Assembly: GCA_965218095.1 (NCBI GenBank)
Contig: OZ244587.1
Span: forward strand, 1,668,720 to 1,732,719
DNA from: Candidatus Poribacteria bacterium
GTDB taxonomy: Bacteria; Poribacteria; WGA-4E; PCPOR2b
DNA length: 64,000 nucleotides
Direction of reading: 5' to 3'
Shown: piece after piece, positions 3,537-62,702 of the stretch
Numbering within the stretch: the stretch's first letter is position 1
How the letters are laid out: each line of letters opens with the position of its first letter
The notes under the pieces: generated by a model
Databases searched by the model: none
What the model saw: only the letters and a program-made list of their open reading frames with translations
Told to the model about the DNA's origin: nothing
Translations under genes and position numbers: made by a program

Positions 3537-3869
3537 CAGTAAATTCTCTTTTATTCATGTGTGCTTCTGCCCTTGTGATCAGACGATTTGTTTCGTCTTT
3601 CATATTATCATCCCGCTACGACTTCTACGCTTTAGCAATCCGGCTTCCTGAGTGTAAATGTACATGAGTGCTATCTGCTTACTTCTTATGCCTCATTGCA
3701 ACCGTTGAGGGCTCATTGGCGAAAATCAACGGGTTAATTTGTGTGAGCAACTCGTCTCGTTCAATAAAACATCAGGATGTTGAGGAATAACACTTTGTGA
3801 ATCATGAGGATCTCTCCTTTTTGACAGCCACTCTTGACGCCCCCCTCTATGTCTCCCCCCAACTTTGGA

Positions 3870-4097
3870 CTTACTATTACCCATAAGTCTGCAAACCCTT
3901 GTTGTGGTATAGGGATTCTGCCCGCTGATGAATCAGCGAGCTACACAGCTGCGTCCGATGAAGAAACCGATAAACGAAGTTTATTAGTTTCTCCTGAATC
4001 GAGTTTAGAAGATCGCTCGAAAGCCCGATGAATCGGGCTTCTTTTTCTGTAACTCGGCGACTTCATCGCCGAGCGAAAAGATGTGGGTAATAGTAAG
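3870..4097 (+). repeat. MITE-like structured repeat, copy 1 (downstream of the 1210-aa gene)
   Basis: Terminal inverted repeats CTTACTATTACCCAT...ATGTGGGTAATAGTAAG. Three internal stem-loops with GATGAATC-type loops. About 95% identical to copy 2 at 7987-8206. Confidence 0.6.
4021..4047 (+). terminator. intrinsic-terminator-like hairpin plus T-tract inside MITE copy 1
   Basis: aaGCCCGATgaATCGGGCtt followed by cttttt. Confidence 0.45.
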
Positions 4098-4273
4098 CCT
4101 TATCAGGGGGAGAGGCAGAGATGCCTCGCTACAGAAACCCGGGCCGATCATACCACAGCATCATTTATCCAAATGAATCGCCCCGCGCTAGATGAATCAA
4201 GCGCCTCAAGTGAGGCGTTAGGACATCAGGGCATTCTATTGGCACTGCACGTAGCGAATATTTGAAAATTATA

Positions 4274-7200
4274 TTACTTCAAAATGACCATCCGCCTCAT
4301 CTGACGGAAAGATGGCGTAGACAATTGGTAGAAATAGAGTCCACTTGAGACCCGCTCTCCCGTTTCAGAGCGTCCATCCCAATACGCGGCTCGGCTCCGA
4401 TTCGTGTAATAGCCAGCTATCTGATGACCTAAATCCAACCGACGCACCAACGCGCCCTTTGTGTCATAAATCGTGATCTGCACATCGGCATCGTTGGCGA
4501 GATGATACGGCATCCATGTCTCCGGGTTGAATGGATTCGGGTAGTTTGGCAACAGGGCTATCTCTGTTGGTGTCAGGGATGCCAAGAGCTGTTCAAGCAC
4601 CACAATCCCCCTCACCATCGTGGCATCCTTAACCTCAAGCGACCTCGCGTCGGTCAGCCACTGTTGAACGTCTGCCGCCGTGAGCATCTCAAATGCTTGT
4701 GGATGCGCTGAAGGCGCGGATGCCGCATTCCCAAACGCGCCCGCAACCAACACCAGATCTAGGATATTCACGCCACCGTCACTATTCACATCCCCCGCAA
4801 TCGGTGGCGGCTCAGTGTCGGAGACGACCTTAAAGGTCACCGTTTGCTCAAATCCAGCGGCAGACACAGAGACGGTGTTCGTTCCCGGGTTCGGACCCAG
4901 CGTGAGCGTACTCTCTGCTCTGCCGTTTTCATCGGTCATTGTGCGTGTGGCATTGAGCGTTCCACCGCCCGTGGTCACGGTAAACGTGACCGGAACCCCC
5001 TCAAGCACTGAACCATTCTCATCCTGTACTTCAACGACAAACGGGTTCGCCGGGGCCGCACCGGACACGCCTTTCTGGTTATCGCCTGAGATTTTCAAAA
5101 GGGCGGGATGCGCTTGGTCGTCAAAGCCTACCATAACCCTTCTGCTTTGGAGGGTTGGAATGTGGGTGTGGATGGATGTGTAGCTCAGGAGGTTTCCCGT
5201 CACATCAACCGTGTCTCCACCCCCCAATCCCGTGTTTGCCACCAGGGGCGAGATGTCCGATATCGAGTTGTCCGAAAGCTCCAGCCATGTCAGATTGGTT
5301 AATCCCGACACAGGCGAGATGTCCGATATCGAGTTCCCGCCAAGCCCCAGCCATGTCAGATTGGTTAATCCCGACACAGGCAAGATGTCCGATATCGAGT
5401 TCCCGCCAAGCCCCAGCCATGTCAGATTGGTTAATCCCGACACAGGCGAGATGTCCGATATCGAGTTCCTGTCAAGAAACAGCCGTGTCAGATTGGTTAA
5501 TCCCGACACAGGCGAGATGTCCGATATCGGGTTGCCCCAAAGATACAGCTCTGTCAGATTGGTTAATCCCGACACAGGCGAGATATCCGATACTGAGTTG
5601 TTGTGAAGATTTAGATCTGTCAAATTGGTTAATCCTGCCACTGCTGAGATGTTCGAGATGTTGTTGTCCCCAAGAAACAGTCCTGTCAAGCTGGTTAAGC
5701 CGGACATCGTCGAGATGTCCGAGATGTTACTGCCCCCAAGAGACAGCGACCTTAGTTTGGTTAAACCCGTTAAAGGCGAGAAATCCGATACCGAGTTACT
5801 GTTAATCGAACGATTCTCTGCCTCCACATACTCCGCACTAAGATCCAGTGTTCTCAGGTTGGTTGCACCTTCAAGCCCGGTCAAATCGCTTATGTTGGCG
5901 TTTCTTGCGTCAAGGCGGGTCAAATTTTCTAGGTGCCCTCGGAAAATGGGAGTACTTGGTGGCAGCCCGATCGCTTCTGCAATCGCAGCGCGGAGGTTGG
6001 GGTCGGGGATGTCAATCTCAGCCACTGCCTCAAGACGAACCCCCATTAACCCAGACATATCCCACAGTTCGACCGTGCCAGCCACCGTCCCGGAGGCAAG
6101 GGTTGTATCATCGCTTGAAAATGCCACAGAAAGTACATGATCCCCATGCCCGAGAGTGACGAAATTTACTCGCGTCGTTATGTCCCACAGCTTGACCGTC
6201 CTGTCCCACGACCCGGTAGCGAGGGTACTCCCATCGCGCGAAAATGCCACAGAAGTGACCCCACCCGTATGCTCTTCAAAAGTGCCGATATTTTGCTGTG
6301 TCTCAACATCCCACAGCTTGACCGTCCTATCCCACGACCCGGTAGCGAGGAGGGTCGCATCAACAGGCGAAAATGCCACAGAAGTGACCCTACTCGTGTA
6401 ATCCTCAAAAGTGCCGATATCTCGGTGCGTCGCCACGTCCCACAGCTTGACCGTCCCATCCCGCGACCCGGTAGCGAGAATTGCCCCATCGGGCGAAAAC
6501 GACACAGAAGTGACCTCATCCGTATGTCTAAAAGTGGCGATATCTCGTTCTGTCTCTACGTCCCACAGCTTAACCGTCCCATCCCATGAGCCGGCAGCGA
6601 GGGTCCTCTTATCGGACGAAAACGTCATAGCAGATGTATATGTATGCACCTTAAGGGTCGCGATATCTTGTTGCGATACTACGTCCCACAGTTTGACTGT
6701 CCCATCCCATGAGCCGGTTGCGAGAGTCACGCCATCGGACAAAAATGCCACAGAATGGACTCCAGATGTATGCTCATCAAAGGTGGCGATATGGTGTGGC
6801 GAAATTTCCACAAGCCAAAAGGAGGCATAGCCTGCATTCCCATCCGTATCAACAACCTTGACATGAACGGTATGTACCATAGAATCAGACAGATTCGTAA
6901 AGCCCTCCGCTGTAAAAGCACCGTTATAGTCGAATTTAATGGGGGCATCTTTTTCTCCCGCTAATCCACGACACGCTATCAGTCCATCAGAACCAGACAG
7001 GAGCACTTGATGGAGCCCCTCTGAATCGCTGACTTTGAGTTGAACCGGGACGCTCTGCGAGCCTGCCGGATAAGTACGCGGCGAGGTAAGTTCAATGGTG
7101 GGTCGCTCCCCCTCTTCAGTTGGGGTATTGAGATTGAAGTAGGGATGCACGGACAAATATTCGGCATGGCACGCGGATAACTGATCCCGTCCTGGACCAC

Positions 7201-7906
7201 CATACGACATGATGTACGCACCATCGTGAAAATCGTGATTCAGTCCGAAGGCGTGTCCCAGTTCATGTGCTGCTGTTCCGAAGCTAAATTCGCCAGGAAC
7301 TAACGCATCTCCACCATTTTTCCCCCATCTGCCTCCGACACCTCCGACGTTACGTCCATCACCAAGACCAATTAGATCTGTGCTATTATCAATGACGATT
7401 AGGTAAACGTTTGCCTCAAGATTAAACGCTAGGTTTATCTCGTCGAATACAGCACCAGCGGTGTTATCAAGGTAGTGGCTATCGGGGTGTCGCCCGTCCA
7501 CGTGATGCACCATCGGCTCGCCTTGGGGGTCGGTTTCGATGCGGAAGGGGACTGCCCCGTAACCGTGTGCACCCATCTGCTCGGCAAAGAAGGTCTGGAC
7601 CTTGAGAATCTCCTCCTTCATCCGCTGAACGACGTCGGCGCGATACGGGCGGTCATTGGGTAAGAGGTAGATTATCCGTACCGTGCGTGGTTCACCGACG
7701 TTCAAATTCGCTGTAAAGGATTGGGCGTAGCGACGATTGGGATATTGGTCCGAATACCGTTTGCTCCATTGATTATCAATAACGCCGCAAAAAAGTGTCC
7801 CGTTTCCGGCAGATAGCTGGGAGGCGGCAATCGCTAGGTTGAGTGTGCCGCCGGTGAGATAGATTATTAGAGAGTATAAGGTGAAACGAAAAAATTGTGT
7901 TTTCAT
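4274..7906 (-). CDS. secreted mosaic metalloprotease: signal peptide, metzincin (reprolysin-like) domain, 7 WD40 blades, about 9 LRRs, Big_2-like Ig domain, dockerin-like module, T9SS C-terminal sorting domain
   Basis: 1210 aa. HELGHAFGLNHDF with Met-turn YIMSY near nt 7255. Seven ATGSWDGTVKLWDV repeats at about 6040-6830. LTNLTxLxLxxNSISDISPVSG repeats at about 5200-5900. An invasin-like beta domain at about 4830-5100. DVNSDGGVNILDLVLVAGAFG at about 4720-4800. C-terminus LLPNYPNPFNPETWMPYHL...YFYQLSTPSFRQMRRMVILK. Confidence 0.85.
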   Translation of the reverse strand: MKTQFFRFTLYSLIIYLTGGTLNLAIAASQLSAGNGTLFCGVIDNQWSKRYSDQYPNRRYAQSFTANLNVGEPRTVRIIYLLPNDRPYRADVVQRMKEEILKVQTFFAEQMGAHGYGAVPFRIETDPQGEPMVHHVDGRHPDSHYLDNTAGAVFDEINLAFNLEANVYLIVIDNSTDLIGLGDGRNVGGVGGRWGKNGGDALVPGEFSFGTAAHELGHAFGLNHDFHDGAYIMSYGGPGRDQLSACHAEYLSVHPYFNLNTPTEEGERPTIELTSPRTYPAGSQSVPVQLKVSDSEGLHQVLLSGSDGLIACRGLAGEKDAPIKFDYNGAFTAEGFTNLSDSMVHTVHVKVVDTDGNAGYASFWLVEISPHHIATFDEHTSGVHSVAFLSDGVTLATGSWDGTVKLWDVVSQQDIATLKVHTYTSAMTFSSDKRTLAAGSWDGTVKLWDVETERDIATFRHTDEVTSVSFSPDGAILATGSRDGTVKLWDVATHRDIGTFEDYTSRVTSVAFSPVDATLLATGSWDRTVKLWDVETQQNIGTFEEHTGGVTSVAFSRDGSTLATGSWDRTVKLWDITTRVNFVTLGHGDHVLSVAFSSDDTTLASGTVAGTVELWDMSGLMGVRLEAVAEIDIPDPNLRAAIAEAIGLPPSTPIFRGHLENLTRLDARNANISDLTGLEGATNLRTLDLSAEYVEAENRSINSNSVSDFSPLTGLTKLRSLSLGGSNISDISTMSGLTSLTGLFLGDNNISNISAVAGLTNLTDLNLHNNSVSDISPVSGLTNLTELYLWGNPISDISPVSGLTNLTRLFLDRNSISDISPVSGLTNLTWLGLGGNSISDILPVSGLTNLTWLGLGGNSISDISPVSGLTNLTWLELSDNSISDISPLVANTGLGGGDTVDVTGNLLSYTSIHTHIPTLQSRRVMVGFDDQAHPALLKISGDNQKGVSGAAPANPFVVEVQDENGSVLEGVPVTFTVTTGGGTLNATRTMTDENGRAESTLTLGPNPGTNTVSVSAAGFEQTVTFKVVSDTEPPPIAGDVNSDGGVNILDLVLVAGAFGNAASAPSAHPQAFEMLTAADVQQWLTDARSLEVKDATMVRGIVVLEQLLASLTPTEIALLPNYPNPFNPETWMPYHLANDADVQITIYDTKGALVRRLDLGHQIAGYYTNRSRAAYWDGRSETGERVSSGLYFYQLSTPSFRQMRRMVILK

Positions 7907-7986
7907 CGCTATGTTTATTTCCTTTGAGGTTGGAAATGTGTGAGAGGCATTTGTGCCTCGATTGTCAGGACACCCCCCTTATCAGG

Positions 7987-8206
7987 CTTACTATTACCCA
8001 TAAGTCTGCAAACCCTTGTGGTATAGGGATTCTGCCCGCCGATGAATCAGCGGGCTACACGGCTGCGTCCGATGAAGAAACCGATAAACGAAGTTTATTA
8101 GTTTCTCCTGAATTGAACTGAGAAGATCGCTCGAAAGCCCGATGAATCGGGCTTCTTTTTCTGTAACTCGGCGACTTCATCGCCGAGCGAAAAGATGTGG
8201 GTAATA
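7987..8206 (+). repeat. MITE-like structured repeat, copy 2 (upstream of the 1210-aa gene)
   Basis: Same orientation and architecture as copy 1. Hairpin plus T-tract at 8145-8170. A 3-nt deletion and several compensating stem substitutions relative to copy 1. Confidence 0.6.
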
Positions 8207-8254
8207 GATAGCAACTTTGAGGGGACATATAGAGGGAGACTTTTCAAAGTTAAA

Positions 8255-19530: not shown

Positions 19531-19557
19531 GTCAACCTCCTAGGTTCTGTTGACATT

Positions 19558-19994
19558 TCAAGGGAGCCATATAAGAGTGGAGACAAAGCTGAGAAATCCA
19601 AAATAACGGATAGCTAACTTCTCGAACCGAGAGAAGATGCGGCGATACCATTTTATCTTGTTAATGAAACATTCAACCCGATGTCTCTCTTTGTACAGAT
19701 GTTTGTCGTAATCTCTTTGATCCACACGATGACTTTTGGGCGGTATCACCGCAATCGCTCCATTCGCCTCAATAACCGCGATAAAATTGTCAGAGTCATA
19801 TCCCTTGTCTCCAATCACATACTCGCTTTTATATCCAAGTATCAACGCTTCTGCTTCTGCTATGTCGTTTCTTTGACCGGGCGTCAGATGTATTCTTAGT
19901 GGATTACCCAGGCCGTCAACGATGATGTGAATTTTTGTACTGAATCCCCCGCGAGAGCGACCTAACGCTTGGTTTTCAGTGCCACCCTTTTTTT
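19558..19994 (-). CDS. IS427-group transposase OrfB (DDE domain), reached by -1 frameshift from OrfA
   Basis: ...STKIHIIVDGLGNPLRIHLTPGQRNDI...VIGDKGYDSDNFIAVIEANGAIAVIPPKSHR... Confidence 0.75.
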
Positions 19995-30302: not shown

Positions 30303-31239
30303 TAACCCAAGTTGCGACCTATTCATCGAATATGTGAGTGAACTGAATATGTGAGTGAACTCAGAGCTGATTGATACTGCTAGCCAATACAAACAAGACC
30401 ACTTTCAATTCAAATCCGTGTTGCGTTACTGCATGGATTGAACGTGGAAGCAGTTTGTTAATCAAACTGCCAGCCGTCTCAACAGACTTACGATGGTAAT
30501 TAGCCAAGTAGGTCTCCCATGGTGGATACAGCCGCTTGGAATTCTTCTTGCGTACTGGCTTTAACGACTGATGTAACAATATCTTCTATCTCATAATTAT
30601 TGTATGCTTTGTCACCATAGCCCGGTGGCAAGTCGAAGTCAAACCACTGTAACCCTTCAACGTCCCCTGTACTGGCTGGGGTCACAAAAAATTCAACAGG
30701 GTGTCGACTCGCAGTCACTAGCAGATGAACTTTCAAGCCATAGAAATACCGACGTTTGGACGCTTGATAGCCTCGATATGCCTTATCGGTATAGATTTTT
30801 GACCGACGAATGCGGAACAAACAGCAATTGGTATGGTATCCAGTGCATAGATTTTCTGTTGATTAAGTTGCACATAGCTTCGTCCCAAGATTTTGAACAA
30901 TGTGGTGAACATCGGTTTAATTCGATGAAGTCGTCGGTTTAATCGACTTTTTGAAAGCATCTTGGGTATATAGCCATGAGTCTTTAGAAAGTCACAAGTG
31001 GTTTGCAAGTTTGCCCCGAAGAACAACGCAGCGACGATGCCGGTGGTCATCACTTCGGCATCAGACATCTGCGTTTGTGGGTGTGGTTTTGAGTTGAGTG
31101 CTTCTAAGAGCTTGTCACAGAGATAGAAAATGGTTACAATTTGGATGTCCATGGGTTTCTCCTTTGAGGTATTATGGTTTGGATTACCTCTACTTTAACG
31201 GAAAACCCATGGATTTTCAATTACTAGCAACTTGGGTTA
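30303..31239 (-). mobile_element. IS982-family insertion sequence, copy 1 (degenerate)
   Basis: 13-bp perfect terminal inverted repeat TAACCCAAGTTGC...GCAACTTGGGTTA. The transposase is split into three ORFs (30733-31152, 30500-30820 and 30361-30579), with motifs FYGLKVHLLV...TPASTGD...HGFELKVVLFVLASSINQL typical of IS982 transposases. Confidence 0.75.
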
Positions 31240-60957: not shown

Positions 60958-62702
60958 TAACCCAAGTTGCTAGGTTCTGTTGACATTTCAAGGGAGCCAT
61001 ATAAGAGTGGAGACAAAGCTGAGAAATCCAAAATAACGGACAGCTAGCTTCTCAAACCGAGAGAAGATACGACGATACCATTTTATCTTGTTGATGAAAC
61101 ATTCAACCCGATGTCTCTCTTTGTATAAGTGTTTGTCATACATTCTTTGGTCAACACGATGACTTTTTGGCGGTATCACCGCAATTGCTCCATTCGCCTC
61201 AATAACCGCGATAAAAGCGTCCGAATCGTACCCCTTGTCTCCAATCACATATTCACTGTTATATCCGATTATCAACCCTTCCGCCTCAGTTATGTCATGT
61301 CTCTGACCGGGGGTCAGATGAATTCTTAGGGGATTGCCTAGTCCGTCAACTGTGATGTGATTTTTTGTACTGAAACCGCCCCGAGAGCGACCTAATGCTT
61401 GGTTTTCAGTGCCACCCTTTTTTTTAAGGTGCCCGCCGCAGACGGGTGAGCGCGGCAGATGGTACTGTCCACAATAAGCGACTCGATATCGGGGTCAGAG
61501 GCGAAGTGGTGGTGCATCTGTGTGAAGCCCCCTTTGTCGCACCATCGAGCAAACCGCTTGTAGCGGGTGTTCCATTTGCCATAGGTGTCTGGTAGAATCC
61601 GCCATTGAGCCCCACTACGAGTCACCCACAGGACGGCTTCGACGAAGCGGCGTGTAGCAGCTTCGTCGCCAACATAGATGGTGGGACAGCTTAGAAGAAA
61701 CCGGTATATCTTATTCCATTGTTCATCAGGTAAGGTTATTGGCGTCATTCTTCTATTATGCCACAACCTTATACTCAAATGTCAACAGAACCTAGTAATT
61801 GAAAATCCATGGGTTTTCCGTTAAAGTAGAGGTAATCCAAACCATAATACCTCAAAGGAGAAACCCATGGACATCCAAATTGCAACCATTTTCTATCTCT
61901 GTGACAAGCGCTTAGAAGCACTCAACTCAAAACCACACCCACAAACGCAGATGTCTGATGCCGAAGTGATGACCACCGGCATCGTCGCTGCGTTGTTCTT
62001 CGGGGCAAACTTGCAAACCACTTGTGACTTTCTAAAGACTCATGGCTATATACCCAAGATGCTTTCAAAAAGTCGATTAAACCGATGTTCACCACATTGT
62101 TCAAAATCTTGGGACGAAGCTATGTGCAACTTAATCAACAGAAAATCTATGCACTGGATACCATACCAATTGCTGTTTGTTCCGCATTCGTCGGTCAAAA
62201 ATCTACACCGATAAGGCATATCGAGGCTATCAAGCGTCCAAACGTCGGTATTTCTATGGCTTGAAAGTTCATCTGCTAGTGACTGCGAGTCGACACCCTG
62301 TTGAATTTTTTGTGACCCCAGCCAGTACAGGGGACGTTGAAGGGTTACAGTGGTTTGACTTCAACTTGCCACCGGGCTATGGTGACAAAGCATACAATAA
62401 TTATGAGATAGAAGATATTGTTACATCAGTCGGAGTCGAATTAAAGCCAGTACGCAAGAAGAATTCCAAGCGGCTGTATCCACCATGGGAGACCTACTTG
62501 GCTAATTACCATCGTAAGTCTGTTGAGACGGCTGGCAGTTTGATTAACAAACTGCTTCCACGTTCAATCCATGCAGTAACGCAACACGGATTTGAATTGA
62601 AAGTGGTCTTGTTTGTATTGGCTAGCAGTATCAATCAGCTCTGAGTTCACTCACATATTCAGTTCACTCACATATTCGATGAATAGGTCGCAACTTGGGT
62701 TA
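60958..62702 (+). mobile_element. IS982-family insertion sequence, copy 2 (degenerate), carrying a nested IS427-like insertion
   Basis: Same 13-bp inverted repeat as copy 1 (60958-70 and 62690-62702). Transposase ORFs at 61867-62214 and 62177-62644. A 22-bp deletion relative to copy 1. Confidence 0.75.
60973..61792 (-). mobile_element. IS5-family (IS427-group) insertion sequence, copy 2, 820 bp, nested 13 bp inside the IS982-like end
   Basis: Same 12-bp inverted repeat as copy 1. A TA duplication in CTAG (60971-72 and 61793-94). OrfA at 61392-61778. OrfB is degraded (only 60988-61275 remains open). Confidence 0.8.

Follow-up and report, generated by a model that had tools for sequence, protein, structure and literature searches.

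The stretch of DNA considered here (the window) comprises 64,000 nucleotides of a Candidatus Poribacteria bacterium (contig OZ244587.1 of assembly GCA_965218095.1, positions 1,668,720 to 1,732,719), and contains two direct copies of a short structured repeat that bracket a gene encoding a secreted repeat protein of 1210 aa. Judging by its sequence, the repeat is a MITE (miniature inverted-repeat transposable element) whose termini are Tn5/IS50-type ends (IS4 family), shared with an insertion sequence (IS) that is widespread in Poribacteria. We consider it probable that the MITE pair of this Tn5-like IS group acted as a composite transposon and relocated the gene enclosed between its two members.

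The repeat pair and its Tn5-like partner

The first copy (M1) occupies positions 3870-4097 of the window on the + strand and measures 228 bp, with intact Tn5-like ends at 3870-3888 and 4079-4097; the second (M2) lies in the same orientation at 7987-8211, measures 225 bp, and has an intact left end and a right end mutated at positions 3-4. An earlier note, made from the letters of the window, had recognised the two direct copies and had closed the second one at 8206, because two of the last 4 nt of its right end are substituted (…ATAGATAG vs …ATAGTAAG, CTATC for CTTAC), a mutation common to all three strains in which the locus was found. M1 and M2 are 95.5% identical over 224 nt (BLASTN, E=2e-101), and when they are aligned pairwise together with their flanks, the similarity starts and stops exactly at the element termini, so the repeat is not a portion of some longer segmental duplication, a possibility which the note had left open. 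The terminal inverted repeats that it described are indeed present: the 14 nt CTTACTATTACCCA are perfect at three of the four ends (all but the right end of M2), and this string has 5 matches in the window, where 0.15 are expected. There is no third or partial copy of the repeat within the 64 kb. About 10 differences distinguish M1 from M2, all of them common to the three strains, which indicates that the two were already distinct copies before the strains split. Both copies contain only short open reading frames (ORFs) and have no coding capacity; for the internal ORFs of M1 no homologue was found, and among 5.8 billion proteins the longest in-frame peptide matches only itself and the MITE peptide only ORFs of the M1/M2 locus, the latter being a weak proxy of copy number, as these ORFs start in the flank.

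In two other strains (L001 and L002) M1, the gene and M2 are found at the same site with the same flanks, and a metagenome-assembled chromosome of 5.3 Mb as well as two shorter contigs encode the identical GH127 protein next to the locus; the matches in the genome collection and the names of the proteins assign the locus to Candidatus Poribacteria. One short-read contig (L003) stops inside M1 and that of L002 stops 10 nt past M2; the contigs break at M1 and M2 because repeats have this effect on assemblies. The strains also differ by an IS insertion polymorphism, a DDE_Tnp_1_3 transposase gene that breaks an Amidohydro_2 gene in L002 (12007-12822) and not in L001.

The end motif was scanned in 185,579 species-representative genomes, which gave at least 117 loci (labelled here by L-numbers). 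Among the loci listed, 16 Poribacteria genomes account for about 45; most of the others belong to Bdellovibrionota and Chloroflexota, and Rickettsiales, Legionella, Cardinium and others contribute a few. The 14-nt terminus itself is shared without change by Poribacteria, Bdellovibrionota, Chloroflexota, Rickettsia/Tisiphia, Legionella anisa, Cardinium and others. At many loci a + end and a - end are paired 1.5-1.7 kb apart. In the Poribacteria locus L004 the partner IS measures 1591 bp (5358-6948) and codes for a protein of 462 aa, in which Pfam recognises Tnp_DNA_bind, DDE_Tnp_1 and Dimer_Tnp_Tn5 domains; this protein scores 435 bits as an IS4 family transposase (NCBIfam) and aligns over its full length to the crystal-structure sequences of Tn5 transposase (PDB, E=2e-46); the nearest annotated plasmid homologue, 51% identical, is an "IS4 family transposase" of Rhodothermus marinus. 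The right end of this IS recurs without change in the left 22 nt of the MITE, and the IS left end is matched by the MITE right end at 17 of 19 positions; past about 22 nt the interior of the MITE is unrelated to the IS and to whatever else was searched. With the Tn5 outside end CTGACTCTTATACACAAGT (PMC2566895) the MITE left end CTTACTATTACCCATAAGT agrees at 14 of 19 positions. The string of the terminal inverted repeat has no occurrence in the searchable literature.

Sister MITEs that have the same termini and are otherwise unrelated occur in Poribacteria with lengths of 247 bp (L063, L066, L102), 223 bp (L084) and 234 bp (L098). A 274-bp element is found in a metagenome-assembled genome (MAG) labelled Proteobacteria (L077), elements of about 510 bp in a Pseudobdellovibrionaceae MAG (L010, L062, L094), and elements of 43-44 bp that consist of ends only are located within or next to hairpins with a T-run behind them (L021, L050). 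Most of the sister elements are enclosed by perfect 9-bp direct duplications. Among the identities which the earlier note had offered for the repeat, that of a MITE is supported by these clean target duplications of sister families with the same ends, as well as by the 228-bp non-coding element itself, whose ends are the same as in autonomous Tn5-like IS copies of Poribacteria. Two further arrangements were seen among the loci: in L098 (2990-3320) the 27-nt left flank GGACTTACGCATTCCCCCCTTGATAAG of the 234-bp MITE recurs 41 nt past the right end, with no simple 9-bp duplication, and in L071 (6576-7999) 4.1 copies of 346 bp, 98% identical, form a tandem array with the IS right-end motif in each unit.

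Across 28 non-redundant IS and MITE insertions the target duplication is 9 or 10 bp long. Complementarity between the 8 nt to the left and the 8 nt to the right of the duplication averages 4.1 of 8 pairs, compared with 2.0 in controls (random positions of the same loci), and at least 5 complementary pairs are present in 36% of the insertions vs 3% of the controls. The usual target in Poribacteria consists of a C-run, CTTATCAG or a close variant of it, and a G-run, and is embedded in a longer repeated palindromic element (…AACCCCCTAAATCCCCC-TTRTCA-GGGGGACTT…). This intergenic palindrome, roughly AACCCCCTAAAT-CCCCC-TTRTCA-GGGGG-ACTT, is the preferred landing site of the Tn5-like IS, and no description of it is known to us. 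Its copies are found both occupied and empty (for example at 290 and 424 in L004, 517 in L020, 4874 in L027 and 1706 in L092), and in L084 the same palindrome is occupied by the MITE at 785 and empty at 5545, some 4.5 kb away. Since the IS family usually inserts at palindrome centres, the C6 run to the left and the G4-5 run to the right of each copy, both correctly observed in the earlier note, each represent one half of the preferred target. Terminator-like hairpins often serve as targets in Bacteriovoracaceae (L049, L093, L118).

The proposed composite unit and the enclosed gene

The cargo ORF lies at 4274-7906 on the - strand and is bracketed by M1 and M2, as had been noted before, although not exactly, because spacers of 176 nt and 80 nt intervene. 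Its product possesses a signal peptide, the HELGHAFGLNHD motif of metzincin-type zinc metallopeptidases, a WD40 propeller and leucine-rich repeats (LRRs) according to Pfam, together with Big_1, a dockerin-like segment and a FlgD_ig/Por_Secre_tail C-terminus, which is a type IX secretion tail; the Pfam matches to M12/reprolysin families are at or just below the gathering thresholds. The family is large in Poribacteria, where the N-terminal domain alone finds 519 proteins at E<=1e-30. The repeat region differs sharply between strains, and in L001 the gene is split and 74-90% identical, vs 97-99% for the flanks; coding tandem repeats of 66 nt (LRR) and 123-129 nt (WD40), at 5181-5791 and 6057-6792 of the window, are the most strain-variable part.

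The short flanks of the two copies follow the order C6-A-[M1]-B-G5 … gene … C6-B-[M2]-A-G4, where A is CAACTTTG(G)A and B is CCTTATCAGG, and the swap described in the earlier note is therefore real. On the left, the arm CCCTCTATGTCTCCCC with its C-run (3843-3859), which is one half of a split palindromic target (site A), is followed by the outer flank CAACTTTGGA (3860-3869) and M1. On the right, M2 is followed directly by the outer flank CAACTTTGA (8212-8220, with CAACTTTG at 8212-8219) and then by the second arm GGGGACATATAGAGGG (8221-8236), complementary to the first one. The inner flanks are two identical copies of B, one at 4098-4107 with the G-run after it and the other at 7977-7986, where a C6 run occupies 7973-7978. 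CAACTTTG stands in direct orientation at both outer junctions, an 8-nt match whose calculated chance at fixed junctions is about 10^-5, and the DNA just outside the outer flanks is an inverted repeat, so that the flanks, once rejoined, fold as DNA into a hairpin of the kind that is preferred as a target (-10 kcal/mol, z -2.6). As the rejoined outer flanks rebuild this hairpin and share CAACTTTG, the unit of 4.34 kb behaves as one insertion into one palindrome. The inner 9-10-mer is the exact target duplicated by IS copies in L106, L040 and L020, and in the opposite orientation in L027 and L018; this target, CCTTATCAG, is used by IS copies in several other Poribacteria genomes, and empty copies of the palindrome exist as well. 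Hairpins of the form GAGAGGCA-N4-TGCCTCG adjoin both inner flanks (4108-4133 and 7940-7965), and the same form is found inside the unrelated 223-bp MITE of L084, so it may represent a further small repeated palindrome of these genomes.

The earlier note had also spoken of recombination scars that mobilised the gene as a cassette. In substance this is supported, as the outer duplication lies in a split palindrome and the inner flanks are a typical IS target, and the flank arrangement can be attributed to transposition or recombination of a MITE-bounded unit; they are not scars of site-specific recombination. A site-specific recombinase core was rejected for the reason that the short flanks are duplicated targets of the sort typical for this IS family. 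An inversion via the 27-nt inverted repeat 4084-4110 / 7974-8000 was also rejected, since it would leave reverse complements of the flanks and not site A outside both copies, and so was unequal crossing-over between the two direct MITEs, which gives B-M-A or A-M-B junctions, never both round one gene.

We suggest the following history. IS copies of 1.6 kb at other places in the genome would provide the transposase in trans; the enzyme would bind the ends, excise the intervening DNA by cut-and-paste and insert it with a staggered cut of 9-10 bp, preferentially at the centre of C-run/G-run palindromes. Two slightly different MITEs would have entered two CCCCC-CTTATCAG-GGGGG palindromes on both sides of the gene, leaving the inner CCTTATCAGG flanks, and the outermost ends would then have been used together, so that a third palindrome, CCCTCTATGTCTCCCCC-CAACTTTGA-GGGGACATATAGAGGG, received M1, the gene and M2 together as one composite transposon. 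Such a move would produce the outer CAACTTTG duplication and the apparent swap of the flanks, and it predicts that, where the site is empty, CCCTCTATGTCTCCCCCCAACTTTGAGGGGACATATAGAGGG would join the GH127 side to the 398-aa gene.

This history of two insertions and a joint move is the simplest one, and it agrees with three observations: M1 and M2 were already distinct, paralogs of the cargo have no such ends, and a promoter-like region of these paralogs is replaced here by B and M2. The two paralogs examined, at other loci (L123 and L124), both lack a CTTACTATTACCCA end and keep, about 75-105 nt upstream of the start, a conserved promoter-like region of the form TTGAT…N17…TATGCT; the homology between them and the window ends about 60 nt upstream of the start, and flank B and M2 occupy the place of that region. 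In a composite transposon both outermost ends are intact, and here the outer end of M2 reads CTATC. The unit is probably immobile at present on account of these two substitutions, which suggests, as far as the sequence of the ends can tell, that it is now fixed.

Several observations speak against the proposed composite move. The target duplication is found only around the pair: M1 lies between CAACTTTGGA and CCTTATCAGG, M2 between the same flanks in reverse order, so neither MITE has a matching duplication of its own, and some event must have followed insertion. In the outer duplication one base, a G, differs (CAACTTTGGA vs CAACTTTGA). There is no transposase gene with Tn5-type domains in the window, and no third copy of the MITE interior appeared in the collections searched, the search of the source chromosome having covered the window: it has no match in E. 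coli genomes, plasmids, phages and IMG/VR, only a chance 21-mer in the JGI metagenomes, and among the at least 117 genome loci listed only the same locus in the two other strains. Exact-protein look-ups of the neighbouring genes returned nothing or the same arrangement only, and thus neither an empty site A nor a donor site was found; the nearest orthologue of the neighbouring 398-aa gene is 79% identical and not syntenic. Finally, integration of a circle by homologous recombination would give the same final structure.

Competing explanations and the internal hairpins

In such a route a circle with the gene and one MITE, the latter flanked by B on both sides, would have integrated at site A, either by recombination with a resident MITE (a Campbell-type event, as for a translocatable unit) or by transposition from a dimer or a cointegrate, and we regard this as possible, if unlikely. 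The order A-M-B...B-M-A, with both copies direct, is precisely what it yields; the inner flanks, of which one has C6 and the other G5, then read as halves of one target, and similar GAGGCA-N4-TGCCTC hairpins adjoin both of them. It requires, however, a 3.9-kb circle of one gene, and in its replicative or dimer version M1 and M2 would be born identical, yet their roughly 10 differences predate the split of the three strains, whose flanks are 97-99% identical. Tn5-type transposases are cut-and-paste and not replicative enzymes, and the partner here is Tn5-like; moreover, identical B-type palindromes recur within a few kb, so two separate sites suffice. Because of the cut-and-paste enzymes, the merely 95% likeness of the copies and the recurrence of the palindromes we rate integration of a circle below composite transposition. 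Chance, a segmental duplication apart from transposition, or an assembly artefact would agree with the fact that only two copies are known, both at one locus, but we find such an origin hardly conceivable, as the same arrangement is present in three independently assembled strains, the similarity stops exactly at the inverted-repeat ends, and these ends match a widespread IS.

A quite different explanation starts from the hairpins inside the repeat. Each copy contains three extended hairpins that share the core GA-UGAA(G)-UC on differing stems, and no such extended GA-UGAA-UC hairpins occur elsewhere in the 64-kb window. In M1, hairpin 1 lies at 3920-3941 on the + strand (GCCCGCTGA-TGAA-TCAGCGAGC, with one C.A mismatch, which in M2 is at another pair), hairpin 2 with its T-tract at 4021-4050 on the + strand, and hairpin 3 at 4053-4073 with its GAUGAAGUC core on the - strand. 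Hairpin 2 is terminator-like according to a terminator scan, has its counterpart in M2 at 8135-8164, and corresponds to the hairpin plus T-tract terminator reported in the earlier note. That note's three stem-loops with GAUGAA-type loops were recovered as far as the common core is concerned; one of them is on the - strand, and a fourth CGATGAA in each copy is unpaired. Its claim of compensatory substitutions in the first stem was not upheld: the T/C difference at pair 7-16 and the A/G difference at pair 3-20 of the 22-nt hairpin (columns 57 and 70 of the alignment) are each one-sided and fall in different pairs. M2 of L001 carries both mismatches of hairpin 1, the other copies have one C·A mismatch each, differently placed, and over the six sequences of three strains none of the 75 pairs is changed on both sides.

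From these hairpins it could be supposed that the repeat is a small structured RNA gene, as the earlier note had considered, or a cis-regulatory RNA present in two copies, with the GAUGAA hairpins serving as protein- or RNA-binding modules and the T-tract as a terminator. The predicted folding is very stable (z = -6.2 on the + strand and -8.7 on the - strand), and this, together with the one core on different stems and the terminator-like site on the + strand, is in accord with an RNA. A low folding energy is nevertheless expected of any element of this build, because terminal inverted repeats and internal palindromes fold stably, and the termini are transposon ends found also on IS copies. 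The hairpins are, besides, spread over both strands and show no covariation; no Rfam family reaches its gathering score in the whole window, the best sub-threshold match of the element in E-value mode having E=0.98; and the element neither contains nor adjoins a promoter-like site, its sole consensus feature being the + strand hairpin with its T-tract, on the strand opposite to all neighbouring genes. An RNA gene or RNA element appears to us very improbable on this evidence. It is a possibility that the conserved GA-UGAA-UC hairpins within the MITE are a functional module and not filler.

Known mobile units and the wider context

The closest relation of the M1-gene-M2 unit is to Tn5/IS50 of the IS4 family. 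The 19-bp ends with their 14 positions identical to the Tn5 outside end, the full-length alignment of the partner transposase with its Tn5 DNA-binding and dimerisation domains, and the target duplications of 9 and sometimes 10 bp in relatives are all Tn5-like, and as in composite Tn5, two end-bearing modules bracket a cargo and the outermost ends bound the mobile unit. Unlike Tn5, in which the modules are inverted IS50 copies of 1.5 kb, the modules here are direct, non-coding MITEs of 228 bp, the transposase has to be provided in trans, insertion strongly favours the centres of C-run/G-run palindromes, and the cargo is a secreted repeat protein and not a resistance gene.

Identical MITEs surround class 1 integrons in Acinetobacter, which suggests mobilisation of the whole unit (reviewed in PMC10969869). 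There, too, two MITE copies bracket a cargo, whereas in the present case the ends derive from another IS family, the host belongs to the phylum Poribacteria, and what is carried is one chromosomal gene from an expanded paralog family; the unit is not known from a second location. We are thus not dealing with a new kind of system, since MITE-bounded mobilisation is already known elsewhere, the Acinetobacter integrons being one example. The direct copies, the duplication outside the pair and the order A-M-B...B-M-A, as from integration of a cointegrate or a circle, also recall the pseudo-compound transposons and translocatable units of IS26, from which the unit differs by a partner transposase that is Tn5-like and not of the IS6 family and by copies that are only about 95% identical. 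With regard to targets, IS1397 and ISKpn1 are IS3-family elements of enterobacteria that insert in the loops of repetitive extragenic palindromes and bacterial interspersed mosaic elements (REP/BIME). Insertion at the centre of repeated palindromic intergenic elements is common to them and to our elements, which, unlike them, are a Tn5-like IS clade that uses a C-run/G-run palindrome family of Poribacteria.

Poribacteria, uncultured sponge symbionts, are reported to have abundant WD40, LRR and other eukaryote-like repeat proteins that are thought to mediate host interaction (PMC8163846). A MITE-bounded unit with one repeat-protein gene offers direct sequence evidence that transposable elements can relocate such genes. 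What is added to the known cases is the preference for palindrome centres and the link of transposable elements to repeat-protein genes in sponge symbionts, and the ends, the probable transposase and the preferred targets of an as yet undescribed group of Tn5-like IS and MITEs are now defined. In practical terms of annotation, the MITE explains the contig breaks at this locus and the spurious small ORFs called within the element. One could go further and propose that the Tn5-like IS clade and its MITEs use Poribacteria-specific palindromes as landing pads and that, because these palindromes sit between genes, MITE pairs routinely capture and shuttle single WD40/LRR genes. Such a generalisation strikes us as quite doubtful; if true, it would provide a concrete mechanism for the expansion and reshuffling of repeat-protein families in sponge symbionts.

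Two longer repeats lie elsewhere in the window. An inverted repeat of about 930 bp (30303-31227 and 61792-62702) has arms that are 96-100% identical and 30.5 kb apart; one arm encodes a DDE_Tnp_1_3/DDE_Tnp_1 fragment, the arms are probably decayed IS5-like copies, and they could invert the 30-kb segment between them. A direct repeat of 300 nt (19533-19832 and 60963-61262) is 90% identical between its two copies, which stand 41 kb apart.

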